Origin: Callorhinchus milii
Taxonomy: Eukaryota
Direction: 5' to 3'
Assembly (NCBI RefSeq): GCF_018977255.1
Contig: NW_024704742.1
Span: 112,594,001-112,658,000, forward strand
DNA: 64,000 nt
Positions 4,401 to 41,845 of the stretch are shown here, piece by piece; position 1 is the stretch's first letter; the number at the start of each line of letters is the position of its first letter. Under the pieces are notes generated by a model. That model made no database searches and had not been told where the DNA came from. It was given only the letters and a program-made list of their open reading frames with translations. A program made the position numbers and the translations under genes.

Positions 4401-4775
4401 TAATAATAATAATAATAATCCTTGCATCTGATATAGTGCTTTTCACGTCTCTGAGACGTCTCAAAGCGCTTCACAGAATAGACTGTGAAGTGAATTGACT
4501 GTATATTTTTTGGGTGAAACGCGGCAGCCAATTGCACACAGCAGTGTCCCACAAACAGTCGCAGATTGAGTGACCAAATTATTTTTTTTTGAAGGAATTA
4601 TTATCCCCGGGAAGTGATCCGCCAATCAACTCACAACCGGATTCCTATTTACTGCTCGGTAAACAGAGGCGTCTGGAGTAAGGAAACTTGTCCAACGTTT
4701 CGCCCTGCCAGGAATCGAACCCAGGGCCTCGCGCTTGCGAGGTGAGTGCTCGAACCACTGAGCTACGGGACTCCA
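4401..4775 (-). mobile_element. tRNA-Ala/CORE SINE, long-core subfamily, full length
   Basis: tRNA-like head with A/B boxes, CORE-like TTGG(A/G)CAAGTTTCCTTACTCC...CTCTGTTTACC, L2-type tail and (TTA)n. Confidence 0.9.
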
Positions 4776-18228: not shown

Positions 18229-18356
18229 AAACAAAAGGCAAAGTACTGCAGATTCTGGAAATTTTACATAAAAAATAGAAGTCGCTGGGAACACACAGTA
18301 GGTCAGGCACTATGCCTGACTTGCTGAGTATTTCCAGCGACCTCTGCTTTTATTGG
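18229..18356. mobile_element. Palindromic Penelope-type insert, centrally deleted, inside a Deu SINE (~18135-18465)
   Basis: Inverted arms homologous to the 37303 and 41072 elements. Flanked by ATACGTCAAT / ATACATCAAT. Confidence 0.7.
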
Positions 18357-29080: not shown

Positions 29081-32000
29081 AAAGTACCACTTCAGGCTGG
29101 ATGTCCTATTTCGGCAAGTCAGAACTGATGTCAATTTGGGACAGCCTTTCACACTTCCTAGTAACCAGTTACACTAATACTGGCCAGCTATTGGACTGCC
29201 CATTCATCCTGTGAGTTAGGAATGATGCATAACAAGAAGTATGAAGTTCAAAAACCAGAGGATAGAATCATAGAATTTATAGTGCAGAAGGAGGCCATTC
29301 AGCCCATCAAATCTGCACTGGCTCTCAGAGCAAGCTATCTTTTCAATCCTACTGCCCTACCCCGAACTCCTTTAAGCCTCTAACTTTCATTTTCCCTTCT
29401 ACTTCCCTCTTGAATTGTACAATTAATTCTGCCTCTACCACCTAACTTAGCAGGACATTCCACTATTCTATTTTTTCATGTGAAAAGCTTTCCTTTCACT
29501 CTTCTTGAGGCTATTTTAGATCTATATCCCCTAGTCACAAGTCGCTGAAGTAAGAGCTTATTTTATATTTTGAAAACTGGTATATTTTCGTTTTCTGGAT
29601 AATTGGCGAGCATTAATGATGGCTTATCACATGGTCTTTTAATTGTGGATATAAGAGTGCCAGTTAAAATTTGTTAAGGCAGCAGTCTAGCACTGTTTTA
29701 ACCAGAGACAAACCTGTCCAACAACTGAATGTCAGAGGCAGCACAGCCTTTGCTGGCTGCTTTGTGGAAACTGAACTGTCACTGGATTATCTTGCATAAA
29801 AATACAATATATAATACAAAAAAACAATACAAATCATATATCACCCTTCACCATTGGTGGGCGGTCTTTCAGCCTTTCTGCCCACTCTCTGGAACTCTAT
29901 CCCAGAGTCACTCTGATTCACTCTTTCCAAGATCCATCTCAAAACCTATATCTTTGACTGTGCCTTCTGTCATCTTTCCCCTCCAACCCTCCCCCCCACC
30001 CCTGGCTTAGGTGCCAAGCCAGTATTGTTAAGCACTTTGGGCTGTCCTTCTGATGTGAAAGGTGCTATATAAATTTATATTGTATTGGATTGTAAATGTA
30101 CATTTACATTGTGTATTTCATGTCAGGAGGACATCCAAAGCACTTAACAATATTGGCTGGCATGCAAGCTGAGGTTGGGAGCTGGTGGAGGGAAGGGAAG
30201 GTGACTATAAGCACGGTCAAACCGACATGTCTTGAAACTGAGCTACTTTGCTTACGCGGTAATGGTCATTGATAAGATTAAACAACAAAAATGCCCAGCT
30301 TAAAATATTGTAATCATAAACTTGTTTAATTATCAGAAGAGATGAGTGTAATAAATAAAACAGGCAATGCAGGGTAGTGAAATATGATTTTAATTTCCAC
30401 TCAAGAGACAGACTGGAACTCATTTGTAATTTTGTGGCTGGTGAGTTATCAAACTGCCTAAATCTTGGAAATAAAAACATAGTTCACCGCTTTTTATTGC
30501 ATATTCTTCATATAACAGTAACATGGAATGTGAGTAGCATTATTTCTCTGTCCACTCAAGGCACCATCTAATTTCCTTTGTCACTTTAAAGTATTGTATA
30601 TTAAACACAGGCTCAGCAGTCCTCCATTAAGCATCGAGGACTGTTACTTAGAGATAAGAGAATCATTATTAGTCGTAGCATTTGGGAAATGCTCCTGCAG
30701 AAAATAATCCGTTGGGATATTAAACATCAGTGTTTTATGTTGTTAAAAGGCAAAAGATTTAAGACGGGTTTTGCTTGTGAAGAAGAAGATATTGAGAAAG
30801 CTCCCCACAAGGCAGAACAAAAGCTGTAACAAAAAGGGATTCAACAAGTCAGACAGATCCACTTCAGCCAAGTGCAAGCGTCTTTAATATCCAGTGACTG
30901 AAGGATGGAAAGCATCAATGAAAATAATGATAGGTGCCAAACCCTGGTATTACATTTGGATAAAGTCCAACATTCTTTATCTGTCCAGAGGGGATGACAT
31001 TAAAATAAACCTTTCATCCAAATCTCTTTTGTGATCTTGTTTGACCAGAATCAATAGTCTGATGACTAGTGTGCTTCCAAGATAAAAAGGTGATTTTACA
31101 GAGTTGAAAACTCAGAATACTTAAAAGCTAATGCTGAGTACTTTGCTCTATCTAGCCCAAGTTGCAAGTTATCGAGGTTAATGAAAGATCTTCATTTATA
31201 TGATAACGATTATTAAAGCTTTGAAATGAGCCATTATTAGCAGCAAGAGCAGTGCCGATAAAACACATGTTACATTTTCTTAAAATGCACTCCGCTCTAT
31301 AGCTAAAACAGATACAAGAGGTGAAGCCCTGGATTCTAATTCAATAGATGCCTGCTTCATTTATATGAGATTTGTTCAATTTGTGTCCTTCTCTAGAGTC
31401 TTTGCCATTGATTTTCAGTTGTTAAACCTTCCTGAAAGGCAGAGGTTTTTTGCTGAATGGCAAAAGGTTAACTTCTTTGGGTTCATTGCTAGCTTTAATG
31501 GGGCCTAATTTGCAGTATTTCTTAATGGTATTCCTTAATAAGGACTTGGAGGGATTTCTTGCAGTAATTGGAAGCACTTCATGCTAACCCACAGGAACTC
31601 TGCACTGATGCAGTCTATTCTCAGAGCAGAGTTTCCGATGCTCAATCATATTTCTAATGGGATTTGCTATTAAGGTATTTTAGCACCTTTCCACCCAATA
31701 TCTGTGAGCTGGTATTTCACCCTAACCCAGTAAGAATAACTTGACTGTCTTAAAACATGTGCTTTTTTTAGCTAGAAAATCCCAAGAAAGCTGGCTAATA
31801 AATGGTCAAAAAACCCGCTTGAGAGCTGTCTGAGAGCAGGATTGGGTTGAAACAATGAACTTTCAACTCTTGGACCTGAGGATGAATCTAGCCAGACTGA
31901 TAGGGTGGAAGTTTTCTGGAAACGGTTTCTGTGCACACTACGATGCAGGTGTAATAAGGTAAGCTCAGGGAAGGTAGAAGCCTCCCATGGAGCAGACAGG

Positions 32001-36104: not shown

Positions 36105-37302
36105 AAGTCGCTTTGCTCTCCAGACAGATAAACTTGCAAAACTCCACCGAAGAGCTTGGTTTTGTAATGGGAGAACAGTAGTGTGTGCATTCTGAAATGA
36201 TAAGATCAAATGAGCCAAAGGGCCTTCTTCATCTAAACTGATCTTGTGAATGCTCAGCATATGAATTTTCAAACTCTCAGCAGGCTTATTGATGCTTATC
36301 TGTGACTAGTGTGTGTGTTTTTAATGAATTGCATGAGACACATTACATAGGAGTTATGATCTTCACAGCATATGTTTAAAATAAGAAAAATAATCACTGA
36401 GATGAGTAAGGTCTTCAGTTTCACATATGTGTGGGTGGTCAATAACAATCTGAAACTGATAGTCAAATTTAAGGATAACTGCGAGGAAATTAAGTATCAA
36501 TGTTGAGTAAAATAAACAAGGAAATAAATAATTAAATAAATAAATTAAAGAAATAAATATTGGATGATTTTCTGGCATGTGAGAGGAACCTGACCTTTTT
36601 ACGCTCTCACAAGTGAGGCACCTGACAAAACAGTTTGGGAATTGCCTGGGAATGAAAGAAATGCACTCACTACTGTTTAGAAAGCGCTTGCTATTTTTCC
36701 TGCAGAAAGTTGTTCGAGACTGAAATGTTTCAGACAGGCTCAGGCTGTAAGAAGAAGACATGCCTTTAAACTCAGCTCTGATATTATGTACTCCATTCCT
36801 GTAAGGAACTGTCAATTTCACTATTCTGTGATTTTGTGCTGGAAAAACAGTTAAGGTAAAAAGAATGCATATATTTCACAGAACAGTAATCAACTCTTAC
36901 AACACTTGCTGTTGACACCATGAGAGAAAATCATGCATTTTGCAAGTGTGTTGTTCTTTTATCAAACAATTAATAATCTGATGGTGGATTTCCTGTATTA
37001 CAATACTGCTTTAGACAGATAAAATCAGCTCCTTGCTTAGATTAGTTTAACAATTCTGCAATGTGTATACCAAATGCAATTTATATTGTTTAAACTAAGA
37101 AAAAAAGATTGACTTGATTATCTCCCAGAAACATTTCAAATAAGCCTAAGTGTAAGAAATATAGACAATTATGAAGCAGGAATGATAGTTGCAGGAAGAC
37201 AAATATTAACTTAAGACAGGTGATTTGTGGATCCATGTTCTGTAATGGTTGCCTTTATTTGCAGTGATTTTCCCATTTTGAAACCAAGGTTGCCCCTTGG
37301 CC

Positions 37303-37540
37303 AAAAGGCAAAATACTGCAGATGCTAGAGATCTGAAACAAAAACAGAAGTCGCTGGGAACACTCAGCGAGTCAAGTGGCATCTATGGAAGAGAGGAAGG
37401 TGAATTAACGTTTCATATTGATGAGCTTTCGTCAGAATGAAAGGTCCCGATGAAAAGTTATTGACCTGAAATATCAACTCACTTTCCTCTCTCCATGCAT
37501 GCTGCTTGACCTGCTGAGTGTTCCCAACAACTTCTGTTTT
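37303..37540. mobile_element. Palindromic Penelope-type insert with degenerate hammerhead cores
   Basis: ~100-bp inverted arms. CTGACGA...GAAACGTT on the minus strand. Flanks TGCCCCTTGGCC / TGCCCTTGGCC. Confidence 0.78.
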
Positions 37541-39004
37541 TGCCCTTGGCCCCTCTTGGCCAGCATAACTCACAATTCATTGTAGTTTTGATACAATTAA
37601 AGTGATCCACCAACCTCAGTTCAAATGCAGCTGATTATGCATTAATAACAGGTATTAAACCACATTCACTCATTGCTGTAAAAACACAGTGAGCATATAA
37701 TTGTCAAAATAGTATTGCTTGGTCAATGATCTGTTGGTGGATTTTCCTGCTATATTAATTGCATTGGGTATATATAGTGCAACATATCAAACAATGGTCG
37801 ACCATGATTAGAATCAGCAAAAGCAGTGATCATGTTTCAATCCCAACAAAACAAAGACAGAATATGATTTACTCATAAATTCCAGACAGAGACAATTACC
37901 ATAAAACCCAGACAGCTATTTTGGTTTCAAGAAATATTACATAAACATATAAATCACTTGACTAGATAAGGAATAAAAACAGGTATGCTTGCATGCCTGA
38001 TACATTTGATTATATAGAGCACTGTTATTTTGAAAAATGGCACAAAATTAACAAGAAGCATAATTTAAGCATTTAAGTTGGACCATGACATTTTCTTACC
38101 TCTGCTGAAATCTCTTGCTTCTTTGTAGGATTTCACCCGATGATCAGGCTGACCGGCGGTTTTTATGTCTGTTTAAGAAAATTTATGATTCTTTCAAAAA
38201 CTGCTATCTCCCAGAAACACTGATAAAATGCACCATTAAAGTTTGTTGGCTGGATCAGCTGCAGAGATCTTCGAAATGAGTCACATCAGCCTTAACCATG
38301 TCATCATCTTAAAAGGGTATAATTGCTACATAAGAAAGAAGAACAAACACACTTATTTTTTTGTTGCTATCACATTCATGTTTTATTTTGTAAAATTATG
38401 TATTTATATCACAGTTTGAGTACTGAGAAACTGAGGGTATAAAGGTATGTCAAACACTTTAAGACTTTGTGATAGTGATGAATGGAATGAATTTCTACGT
38501 TGAAATCCAGAAACACAAAGATTGAAATGTTCTAAGGTTTTGTACATTTCAGAAATTAATTGTTGAATATTTATCATTACAAATTTACAGAAAATTGTTG
38601 CAGTTTTGAAAAAGGTTTTGGAGTATTTTGAAAACTGAAATGATTGCTCAACACTCAAAAGGTCAATACAAAAATAGCCCCCAGGTAAAGAGTGAACAGA
38701 AGGCAGGTATCTAAGAAGTCTTACTCATTACTACAGCTCTTGACCTTTCTAGCTGCTTTATTTAACACATTTTTAATACAGTGAATTGGAGCTCAAAATA
38801 CTTGGTTCATGCTTAACGTAGGAGCTTAATGATATCTCTTTGATGTCGATTTTTATTGGCAAATTTGCTCAGTTAACAAATTATAAGAATCTGCTAAGGA
38901 AGATCTTAATGCTCAGCAAAGTGGAAATTAATTTTAAAAAGCGGGCAATTACATTTGTCTCAGTGAAAAATTTATTGGAAGGCAATCTTAATAATGAAAA
39001 TCTT

Positions 39005-39431
39005 AATAATAATAATAATCCTTGCAAAACGCAAAATACTGCTGGAAATCTGAAACAAAAAATAATCCTTGCATTTGTTATAGCGCCTCATTACATCTTC
39101 GAGACGTCTCAAAGCGCTTCACAGGATATACTGTAGAGTGAATTGACTGCATATTTTGTGGCCGAAACACAGCAGCCAATTGTGCACTGCAGTGTCCCAC
39201 AAATAGTCGTGGATTGAGTAACCAATTTATTATTTTTTTTGAGGTAATTATTATCCCTGGAAAAGCGATCCGCCAATACTAATGGTCGTTTCCTAACAAC
39301 CAGATCCTACTTGCTGCAAGATAAACAGAGGCATGTGGAGTAAGGAAACTTGCCCGACATTCGCACTGCCGGCAATCAAACCCAGGTCTCTCGCTTGCGA
39401 GGCAAGTGCTCTAACCACTGAGTTACAGGCC
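39005..39431 (-). mobile_element. Long-core SINE carrying a 34-bp insert in its tail
   Basis: Full SINE; insert at 39027-39060 flanked by two copies of AATAATCCTTGCA. Confidence 0.88.
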
Positions 39432-41071
39432 TTTCATTAATAGATTGGGTTCAGAGCACCATTAGTTTACACTGTAAATTATGTAGTTTTAGAACACTGC
39501 TGATTTATGACTGGCATATGTTCATCTATAGACTGCTGTAGGAAGGACCTTCATGAAAGATTGTACAATAGGTAAATGGGGAATATATTCATTCCTTTCA
39601 AACTTTCTTTATTTTCTTCAATTTTTGTTTTCAACAAGGAACCTACTAGACAGAGCTTTCAATAGAAAGTCATGAAGTTTTAGATGGTTAAACTCCAGCA
39701 GTTCCTCAATTTGGCTCTTGCCAACCTATACCTAATATTCTCTAGAGTTAGGTAAACAGGACAAGAGTACTAATTCCATTCCAGACATGAGGATTCCTAA
39801 AATTCTAATTGTATGAACTACTTTACATGTTTTTTTTCTCTTTATGTCAAAATAAAAGGGTGTTTTTGGCCAGCCGGGTGTCTGACACATGCAGAAATCT
39901 ATCACTATGCTTAAGAGTATCCAAACCAAACTGAGAATTCCATGCACCCAACTACACATTGAAATCCCCGAGATGTTTATTGGAATGGAATGCATGCTCT
40001 CTCCCTGGAGGGACACATCCTGCTTACCTAATTCCAGAGAGTATTGGGTGCAGGCTGGCAAAAGCCAAGGTTTGGGAACTCCAGAAAGTTCTGGAGTCTG
40101 ACCAGCTAAATCTGCATAGCTTGCCATTGAGAGCACTGTCTGGCAAGTTTTCCTGCTGCTTGTCTAGCTAGGACCACCCTACCTATTAGGGCTTTGGCTT
40201 GCAGGATTAATAGGAGCTGAGTGGGATGACTCCTGTGTCCAGTGACTGGTCTGCCTTTCCACGTCCTGCCATTGAGCCAGGCTGGTTGGCTGTAACATGT
40301 GAAGTTGTGAAGAGAGACTCAAGTGGCTTTGTTTGCATCAGATAATAATCCTGTGAAGATATGATCCAGCTTTTTAAAATGCTAAGAGGGATGGATAATG
40401 TACAGAATCAAGTGGTTTATTTAATTTAGACGTGAGTGCAGAATTTGATGGTATGAGTATAGAATTAACATGCCTTAAGCAAGATTTAAAATGAGATTTT
40501 TCCCCCACAGAATTGTGGATGTGAGCAATAGATTCTCAGATAAAGTAGGTAATGCTTTGTCGATTAGCACATTTAAAAGAGAGCTGGAAGAATATGTGGG
40601 TAGTGATAGGATTATCAGTATAAGTACAATAGAGATGAATTAATGCTGTATGAAATGTAATTGTTCCTGAGCTACTGAGAACATGAAATGTCACACAAAG
40701 GAAGACACTGGTTTTAGGGTGTATAATGAAGTAGGTAATGTTCAATAGATATTTGGGAGTTTTCCTTGACTTACACCTGAGGGAGATTTAGAAACTTCAC
40801 AGTGCTTTTCTCAGCAAATGAAATTCCTTAGGCATGGCTTAAGACAGAAAAAGCTATCTGGAAAAGGAAGGGATTCATGTCTTTACCTTTATTCATATTT
40901 CAGCCACAAATTTATTTAAGCAACGGTGCTTGTGGGAATTTCCGAATGACTGCTCAAGATAAGCCCAGTTTCCTCAGGTTTCCTTCCTTATATTCACTGA
41001 CCTCAAGAGGTGTGCAGCATCCTCAGTGAATTTTTCTTGACATAAGACATGACATATCATGGAAATGTATG

Positions 41072-41311
41072 AAACAAAAACAGAGAGAGCTGGGAAAACT
41101 CAGCAGATCAGGCAGCATTTATGGAGAAAGGAAAGTGACTCAACGTTTCGGGTTCACAACCCTTCGTCAGAACGGCTCTGATGAACGGTCGTGGACCCGA
41201 AAAGTTGACTCACTTTCCTTTCTCCATAGATGCTGCCTGACCTGCTGAGTTTTCCCAGCTCTCTCTGTTTTTGTTTCAGATTTCCATCATCTGCAGTATT
41301 TTGTGTTTTGT
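41072..41311. mobile_element. Palindromic Penelope-type insert with two hammerhead-like cores
   Basis: Arms 41072-41171 and 41177-41277 are near-perfect inverted copies. CTGANGA-stem-GAAA on both strands. Flanking 15-bp direct repeat matches at 13/15. Confidence 0.85.
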
Positions 41312-41507
41312 TCATGGGAACGTATGTATGCTTTTGCAAAGCTTTGCTAATATGAATTATATAGTGGTAGTGATTTTAATACTTTAGCTCTTTTTATTCT
41401 GTTCTGATGAATATTATGCTGTTTTTGTATGCATTTTATGTATCATTGAAATTATCTAACATTTATACTGTTATCTTGCTAAGAAATCTCTAAACATTTG
41501 AGTTGTG

Positions 41508-41845
41508 ACGTCCTGTAGCTCAGTGGCTAGAGCACTCGCCTGGGTTCGATTCCCAGCAGGGCAAAACGTTGGGCAAGTTTCCTTACTCCACATGCCTCTG
41601 TTTACCTAGCAGTAAGTGGGAACCCCTTGTTATTTGATTGGCGGATCGCTTTTCTGGGGGTAATAATTCCTTCAAAAAAACATTGGTCACTCAATCCACG
41701 ACTGTTTGTGGGACACTGTTGTGCGCAATTGGCTGCCGCATTTCACCCAGTCAATTCACTGTACAGTATATTCTGTGAAGTGCTTTGAGACGTCTCGAAG
41801 ACGTGATAAAGCACTGTATCAAAAGCAAGGATTATTATTATTGTT
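41508..41845 (+). mobile_element. Long-core SINE with a deletion in the head
   Basis: Head lacks the anticodon region; core and tail intact. Confidence 0.88.

Follow-up and report, generated by a model that had tools for sequence, protein, structure and literature searches.

Architecture of the Insert

The window, i.e., the whole 64-kb stretch of Callorhinchus milii DNA that was analyzed, contains a 240-base insert (41072–41311) delimited by flanking repeats at 41057–41071 and 41312–41326. The two repeats form a 15-bp target-site duplication (TSD), identical at 13/15 positions, which confirms that the insert is flanked by direct repeats, as the initial annotation had proposed. Much of the insert is an inverted repeat (41070–41171 and 41177–41278), with arms of 102 nt that are 92% complementary and a loop of 5 nt. 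The arms of about 100 bp and the axis TCAGA-acggc-TCTGA quoted in that annotation are therefore correct.

In what follows, element positions are numbered from hammerhead C3, which is 41178 on the plus strand. To the right of the first TSD copy (41057–41071, plus strand), the final 2 nt of which also lengthen the inverted arm, lies an inverted, tail-less pLTR copy (41072–41173, minus strand) that spans −3 to about +99 and has 5 differences from the family consensus. A single extra base (41174) marks the junction, on either side of which both arms begin at −3; the same junction is found in two other copies (L011 and L014). The forward pLTR copy (41175–41278, plus strand) spans −3 to +100 and is 93% identical to both pLTRs of an ORF-bearing locus (L063). 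It is followed by a one-sided “tail” of ~33 nt (41279–41311, plus strand), an unpaired extension of the right arm that was missing from the earlier description. The right TSD (41312–41326, plus strand) repeats 41057–41071; its initial 5 nt are identical to the continuation of the element RNA that also occurs in three ORF-linked loci (L180, L185, and L192), and this match may represent microhomology at the priming site.

The window also contains an older palindromic copy of type B at 37302–37542 (minus strand), which has a tail and a decayed hammerhead and is 80–85% identical to the consensus sequences of this PLE end family. A further fragment of the family (18232–18354) forms a short hairpin without a hammerhead, and a piece of the family tail (39025–39061) lies inside a (TAA)n run. 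An unrelated imperfect hairpin at 30009–30165, with 24-nt arms (88%), gives several sub-threshold matches to miRNA models and is possibly a relic of a small DNA transposon. tRNA-headed SINE-like repeats with Rfam tRNA matches are located at 4700, 15520, 17644, 33221, 35790, 39361, 45528, and 49032; one more, recognized by eye, occupies about 41510–41830. Many broken LINE-like RT frames, which we take to be L2-like, are scattered across the window.

Hammerhead Motifs

Each arm carries a minimal hammerhead core, and both cores read exactly as first quoted: CUGACGA-A-GGGUU-GUG-AACCC-GAAA-CGUU on the minus strand (41170–41142, inverted arm) and CUGAUGA-AC-GGUC-GUG-GACC-C-GAAA-AGUU on the plus strand (41178–41206, forward arm). 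The minus-strand core and its stem II are intact, with one compensated pair, and one stem I pair is lost through a change in the partner at 41139. The plus-strand core is damaged: it has lost G10.1 (41186), its ACGU is no longer palindromic owing to a change at 15.2 (41203), and one pair of stem I is gone through the change at 41176. The self-dimer energy of this core is +0.4 kcal/mol, compared with −5.7 kcal/mol for the intact motif.

A loose CUGANGA-stem-GAAA descriptor has two matches in the 64-kb window, which are exactly these two cores; in 100 base shuffles of the window, the mean was 0.44 matches, and at least two were found in 5/100. By themselves, the descriptor matches are modest evidence for hammerheads. 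The search of the window against Rfam returned no hammerhead family at E ≤ 1, and the only match at the insert, to MIR533, was set aside as a generic hairpin match (49.4 bits vs a gathering score of 80). The hammerhead reading is accepted because the motif belongs to a dispersed family, and not because of the descriptor alone.

The CUGANGA and GAAA boxes, the bulged base, the G10.1-C11.1 pair, and the palindromic positions 15.2–16.2 are present in the family consensus and in the minus-strand copy, so that the minimal type I hammerhead with a palindromic ACGU, originally read from a single locus, is borne out in the consensus. Stem I, described initially as weak in this copy, is restored in the family as GUU/GAC, plus an A-U pair in arms that are long enough. 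In the family it comprises 3 bp counted from −3 or 4 bp from −4, compared with 4–5 bp in the min-HHRs of metazoan Penelope-like elements, and it is broken on both strands of the window copy. When all sets are pooled, likeness-picked copies included (212 arms), the stem I pairs are kept in 121/130 (U·G), 116/120 (U-A), 98/108 (G-C), and 62/65 (A-U) cases.

Two further expectations, namely covariation in stem II and special conservation of the core, did not hold. Compensatory changes occupy 3 cells in 132 arms × 5 pairs, all within one family; the catalytic positions outside CpG are kept at 97.2%, no better than the downstream sequence at 96.4% (p = 0.29). An intact core is retained by 35/132 full arms, the CpG sites of family arms are 80% intact, and the two arms diverge from the consensus by 4.2% and 4.4%. 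Judged from these sequences, the family copies are decaying neutrally.

The accessible sections of PMC4209133 describe minimal hammerhead ribozymes (min-HHRs) of metazoan Penelope-like elements (PLEs) that are likewise of type I and without stem III, with palindromic 15.2–16.2, a short stem I, an extra base between A9 and G10.1, and a G10.1-C11.1 pair. The present motifs differ from these in that stem II has 5 bp rather than 7–8, merely 7 nt separate the two cores of the window insert, U occupies position H17, and both cores are damaged. Dual min-HHRs on opposite strands, about 100–700 bp apart, are already reported in the same sections, as is the low activity of min-HHRs, even as dimers (PMC4209133).

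The proposal that the insert offers a ribozyme core on either strand fares poorly. Any transcript through the insert carries one core together with its full antisense, and therefore neither ribozyme can fold in the hairpin: the pair probability of stem II in the window hairpin RNA is 0 for either strand, and imposing the stem requires 22–26 kcal/mol, whereas in a lone unit the probability is 0.86. With both cores damaged as well, the window copy is not expected to self-cleave according to these folding models. The palindromic form is a by-product, and so is the second hammerhead.

A Dispersed Family of Copies

Searching the genome (991.5 Mb) with the window insert yielded 2824 candidates, of which 40 were scored; the top matches are 88–93% identical, the window itself excluded. 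For a 23-nt stretch of the tail, the genome contains 704 exact matches, compared with 0 for the control. Decayed PLE end copies like that in the window number at least several hundred. It should be noted that the 40 scored copies, as well as a second set, were selected because they resemble the window. An unbiased set consists of 83 copies picked by the exact tail alone, all on one contig (C1); it comprises 80 of the first 84 among 100 listed tail matches and 4 earlier copies, less one locus (L143) that duplicates another (L142). In each of these copies, ~400 nt upstream of the tail was inspected, more distant inverted arms being missed.

Within the unbiased set, an inverted arm is present in 39/83 copies, while for 44/83 there is none in the stretch fetched. 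The outer ends of the inverted arms fall at +92 to +104 in 29/39 cases, and the tail-bearing forward arms end at about +132. The 5′ limits are strikingly concentrated: 29 of the 83 forward arms start in the interval −7 to 0, 19 start upstream of −7, and 35 downstream, with a mode at −3. The same interval holds the starts of 17/39 inverted arms, again with a mode at −3, and of 16/44 solo copies. Compared with uniform truncation, this hotspot is highly significant for both forward (p = 1.7 × 10−17) and inverted arms (p = 1 × 10−9).

The inner ends of the two arms are uncorrelated (rho −0.02), and the number of copies with both arms in −7 to 0 (6) is close to the 5.7 expected. Because the two stops are independent, the symmetry of the window palindrome, in which both arms start from −3, is a chance product. 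Junctions differ widely among palindromic copies, either arm may be the longer one, and the copies grade continuously into one another, from solo and asymmetric ones to those of kilobase length. A TSD-like repeat of 8–18 nt, mostly 12–16 nt, accompanies 48 of the 65 copies tested, a count made without a chance control.

In many insertions (L085, L098, L122, L124, L139, and others), the TSD falls within the (TAA)n or (TTA)n terminus of a SINE-like repeat, which may point to a preferred target. Two locus pairs are near-identical, flanks included (L061/L062, 99.4% over 4.2 kb, and L142/L143), and represent either segmental or assembly duplicates. Internal deletions at short microhomologies recur in L036, L040, L047, L058, L062, and L122, where the hammerhead or an arm is lost partly or wholly.

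The possibility that 5′ ends cluster where the hammerhead would cleave (+28/+29) was examined and rejected. Only 4/83 forward and 3/39 inverted arms appear to begin in +25 to +32; several of these ends are internal deletions, some at short microhomologies, and for this reason they do not count as a sign of in vivo cleavage. Retrozymes consist of tandem repeats in direct orientation, delimited by the site of hammerhead cleavage. The copies described here, in contrast, are inverted or solo and show no pile-up at +28/+29; a non-LTR retrozyme was rejected, as the copies examined include no tandem array of directly repeated monomers with ends at the cleavage site. The likeness to the non-LTR retrozymes treated in the relevant portion of PMC7229834 is limited to their being small, non-coding, hammerhead-bearing retro-repeats of animals.

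Relation to Penelope-Like Elements

The unit −3 to +132 is the pLTR end of an element with RT and GIY-YIG domains. This is best seen at locus L063, where an inverted pLTR with tail, RT, thumb, Cys-bearing linker, GIY-YIG, 3′ UTR, and a forward pLTR without tail follow one another, and a short flanking repeat is present. The RT piece of this locus has 1332 relatives among 5551 candidates, the best of which is 63% identical; the nearest named protein relatives are those of the bamboo shark, and most of the 120 relatives listed carry PF00078 and some PF01541. One homologue (P0024) scores 29.4 bits for RVT_1 (cut-off 29.6) and 25 bits for GIY-YIG (cut-off 22.6). Pieces of a second ORF-bearing locus, L061, align with this homologue in the thumb/linker (39% over 210 aa), GIY-YIG (61% over 28 aa), and C-terminal regions (49% over 51 aa). 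The local ORF pieces themselves remain below Pfam cut-offs (0 families for 4/4, with no match for RT and a sub-threshold E = 0.015 for GIY-YIG), and thus the RT/GIY-YIG assignment rests on the homologues; a PDB sequence search with these pieces gave 0 matches.

The unit is found after the ORF and before the ORF start. A forward pLTR before the ORF was absent in the first 12 loci and was seen after walking further upstream: pLTR and tail precede the ORF start in 4/11 loci (L157, L159, L163, and L165), in L180 (1/17 in another set), and in a further 20 loci fetched from 40 places. The Penelope origin proposed initially is therefore upheld, since broken ORFs for RT and GIY-YIG are flanked by this very pLTR elsewhere in the genome. 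The autonomous GIY-YIG + RT element with the same pLTR, which the initial annotation recommended looking for, was found only in part: in the loci examined its ORFs are broken, and the longest open frame listed, among 150 scored of 586 candidates, is 470 aa, compared with about 800–900 aa in full-length homologues.

The insert combines the features that characterize insertions of endonuclease-positive (EN+) PLEs: a pLTR in common with the RT + GIY-YIG ORF, an inverted 5′-truncated copy, a tail on one arm, and a TSD. The Cys linker of L061 aligns with that of P0024 and fits the Neptune/Nematis motif as defined in the part of PMC8557442 available to us. In our opinion, the insert is very probably (probability about 0.88) a dead-on-arrival, maximally 5′-truncated insertion of an EN+ PLE with a linker of the Neptune/Nematis type.

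The accessible accounts of EN+ PLE insertions with inverted pLTRs (PMC3846280, PMC8557442) include the same head-to-head inverted 5′-truncated copy, one-arm tail of 30–40 nt, and short TSD, as well as partial tandems with a pLTR before the ORF. What distinguishes the window insert from the insertions described there is that the ORF is wholly absent and that both arms stop at one preferred base; in addition, TSDs are mostly 12–16 bp, compared with 8–10 bp in the rotifer examples. The PLE tail is described in sections of PMC11167929 and PMC3846280. Poseidon of Anolis carolinensis (PAc), as presented in portions of PMC11167929, is similar in that two internal RT starts bound the tail, both target strands are extended, and the hammerhead lies in the pLTR upstream of the RT start sites. 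The ORF of PAc starts at stem II, whereas here the ATG follows the tail and the linker has the Neptune/Nematis Cys motif (PMC11167929).

The 5′ Limit of the Copies

The preferred stop at −3, i.e., 3 nt ahead of the hammerhead core, also applies to copies linked to an ORF: 6 of 26 stop in −7 to 0, 3 reach upstream, and 17 are truncated downstream. TTAAAA begins 30 nt before −3 in 21/23 long copies, and this is true of both subfamilies. The bases around −3 fit an initiator. Since the RNAs that continue into the ORF have the same limit, TTAAAA lies 30 nt upstream, and the flanks are initiator-like, a transcription start is favored, and the −3 limit would most likely be the mRNA start, at about even odds. 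Against it, 19/83 forward arms reach upstream of −7, a start of the pyrimidine-purine type ought to lie at −4 rather than −3, and the Penelope of D. virilis, considered below, has a TATA-less promoter and an intron ending at helix I. The base before −3 (T 20, C 13, G 12) reveals no clear excess of cap-templated G. Four RNA runs are available as contigs, which are uninformative on starts, strand, and level; among the rows listed, contigs of run X13 on L165 have loose ends at 375 (i.e., −3) and 509–514 (the tail end), and those of X1, X3, and X4 at 472–479, the second end.

The same PLE insertion could also stop at −3 for reasons other than transcription start, namely a splice acceptor at −2, the 5′ end of an intron at −3, or a block to RT by protein or structure. 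The position −3 is where a pyrimidine tract and CAG terminate, just ahead of the ORF ATG lies a tract with TAG that resembles an acceptor, and the sequence from −3 opens with GT, presumably a poor fit to the donor consensus. However, 0/45 arms starting exactly at −3 carry a candidate upstream exon end (candidates being taken from 300 nt of L061), and the bases before −3 are variable. The contigs display no GT..AG joint among the 15 of 40 joints listed, and the upstream RNA, by sequence inspection, is C-rich with no evident block. A precedent exists in the Penelope of D. virilis, the intron of which ends at helix I (PMC4209133, in part), so that −2 would be a splice acceptor; a portion of PMC2377424 places the start of this element, which has a TATA-less promoter, 46 nt before a 75-nt intron. 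Taken together, we consider a stop at −3 for any of these reasons rather unlikely. One variant, a spliced template with a common exon 1, was rejected on the basis of the same 0/45 arms.

Between the tail and the ORF ATG of L157, L159, L163, and L165 (L165:510–545), a branch-like motif, a pyrimidine tract, and TAG resemble a splice acceptor. No strong donor for this site is evident, and no matching joint occurs among those listed.

Formation of the Palindrome

According to sections of PMC11167929, a PLE protein, predicted to be a dimer, nicks and extends both target strands and starts reverse transcription from two sites within the RNA, one at each boundary of the tail. The accessible parts of PMC8557442 and PMC2377424 treat both the origin of PLE inverted repeats and the regeneration of pLTRs as unresolved. 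For the copies described here, priming would occur at about +132 on one strand and at about +99 on the other, and the two cDNAs would then be joined head to head. If RT primes internally and runs off the 5′ end of the mRNA, the mini-copies would be the PLE equivalents of retroviral strong-stop DNA, and the unit −3 to +132 would be the terminal redundancy of the PLE mRNA, like the retroviral R region. Each hairpin would join two cDNAs made by a protein dimer from two RNA molecules, and jumps from the run-off end would rebuild the pLTR tandem. The combined proposal of run-off and two templates, under which mini-copies of both kinds, solo and hairpin, would be strong-stop cDNAs that had integrated, is a tentative one that we place somewhat below even odds.

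Partial tandems were observed at L180, L190, L195, L202, and L203. In these, the unit runs 60–135 nt beyond the tail into the ORF start, and a second unit, beginning near −3 to −11, adjoins directly, suggesting template jumps from the run-off end.

The evidence on whether one or two template RNAs are used is mixed. Two templates are favored because the inner ends are independent and because the arms disagree at +73, where 53 type A palindromes include 12 discordant T/G pairs and only 1 concordant G, against a T-to-G background of 0.6%; of the discordant pairs, 8/12 come from the likeness-picked set, the frequency being 2/15 in the unbiased set and 1/10 in a further set. Two separate templates are disfavored because the subfamilies are never mixed (50 AA, 9 BB, and 0 mixed palindromes, n = 59) and because non-consensus bases common to both arms are in excess, with 22 observed vs 14.2 expected under independence.

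The latter two observations would be accounted for if a single cDNA folded at its 3′ end and copied itself, making the arms identical at insertion. Self-priming, on an antisense template, has been proposed for rotifer PLEs (in a section of PMC3846280), and the interval −5 to +2 is quasi-palindromic, with some junctions overlapping there. Yet folding back would tie the inner ends together, and these are uncorrelated, with either arm able to be the longer one; moreover, the 12 discordant pairs vs 1 concordant G at +73 are contrary to arms of identical origin. Self-priming of this kind thus appears improbable.

Less probable still is the dedicated non-autonomous palindromic derivative envisaged initially, in which a fold-back master with a hammerhead on either strand would be copied as a unit. 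Near symmetry does characterize the 30 copies that match the window best, but these were picked for likeness. A few junctions are common to several copies (L007, L009, L013, and L015; the window with L011 and L014), and the discordant pairs at +73 lean to one arm, 9 vs 3. A master, however, predicts a fixed junction and correlated arm lengths, and neither is found: junctions vary widely, truncation is independent, and the number of symmetric forms is that expected by chance (6 vs 5.7). The 44/83 copies without an inverted arm in the stretch fetched, and the continuum from solo through asymmetric to long copies, likewise contradict it, as do the blocking of both ribozymes by the hairpin and the lack of either covariation or extra conservation. 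No palindromic non-autonomous Penelope or Neptune elements were found in the literature search. Finally, it is extremely improbable that this copy was exapted, whether for ribozyme activity or as a hairpin from which small RNAs are made. Although the hairpin, if transcribed, has a computed energy of −171 kcal/mol and the minus-strand core with its stem II is intact, the arms have diverged to an extent usual for the family (3 and 5 changes per 100 sites), the hairpin precludes folding of the ribozymes, and the miRNA-model match is sub-threshold.

Significance

Both the architecture of inverted copy, tail, and TSD and the class of ribozyme have already been described, and the insert in itself matters little; its possible worth is that of a record of the PLE mechanism. 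No statement of the run-off idea was found in the literature, which is weak evidence of novelty, as Repbase, Dfam, and the PLE reviews of 2005–2006 lay outside the search. The accessible sections of PMC11167929 contain no discussion of a fixed 5′ stop of genomic copies; they do report that the PAc ribozyme is assisted by protein and that insertion in vitro can proceed without the ribozyme. The independently truncated arms and the sharp stop at −3 yield a prediction open to testing in the in vitro system that exists for PAc. If run-off on two templates is true, mini-copies such as that in the window would record, in any genome, the transcription start of PLEs and the two-template mechanism of their insertion.
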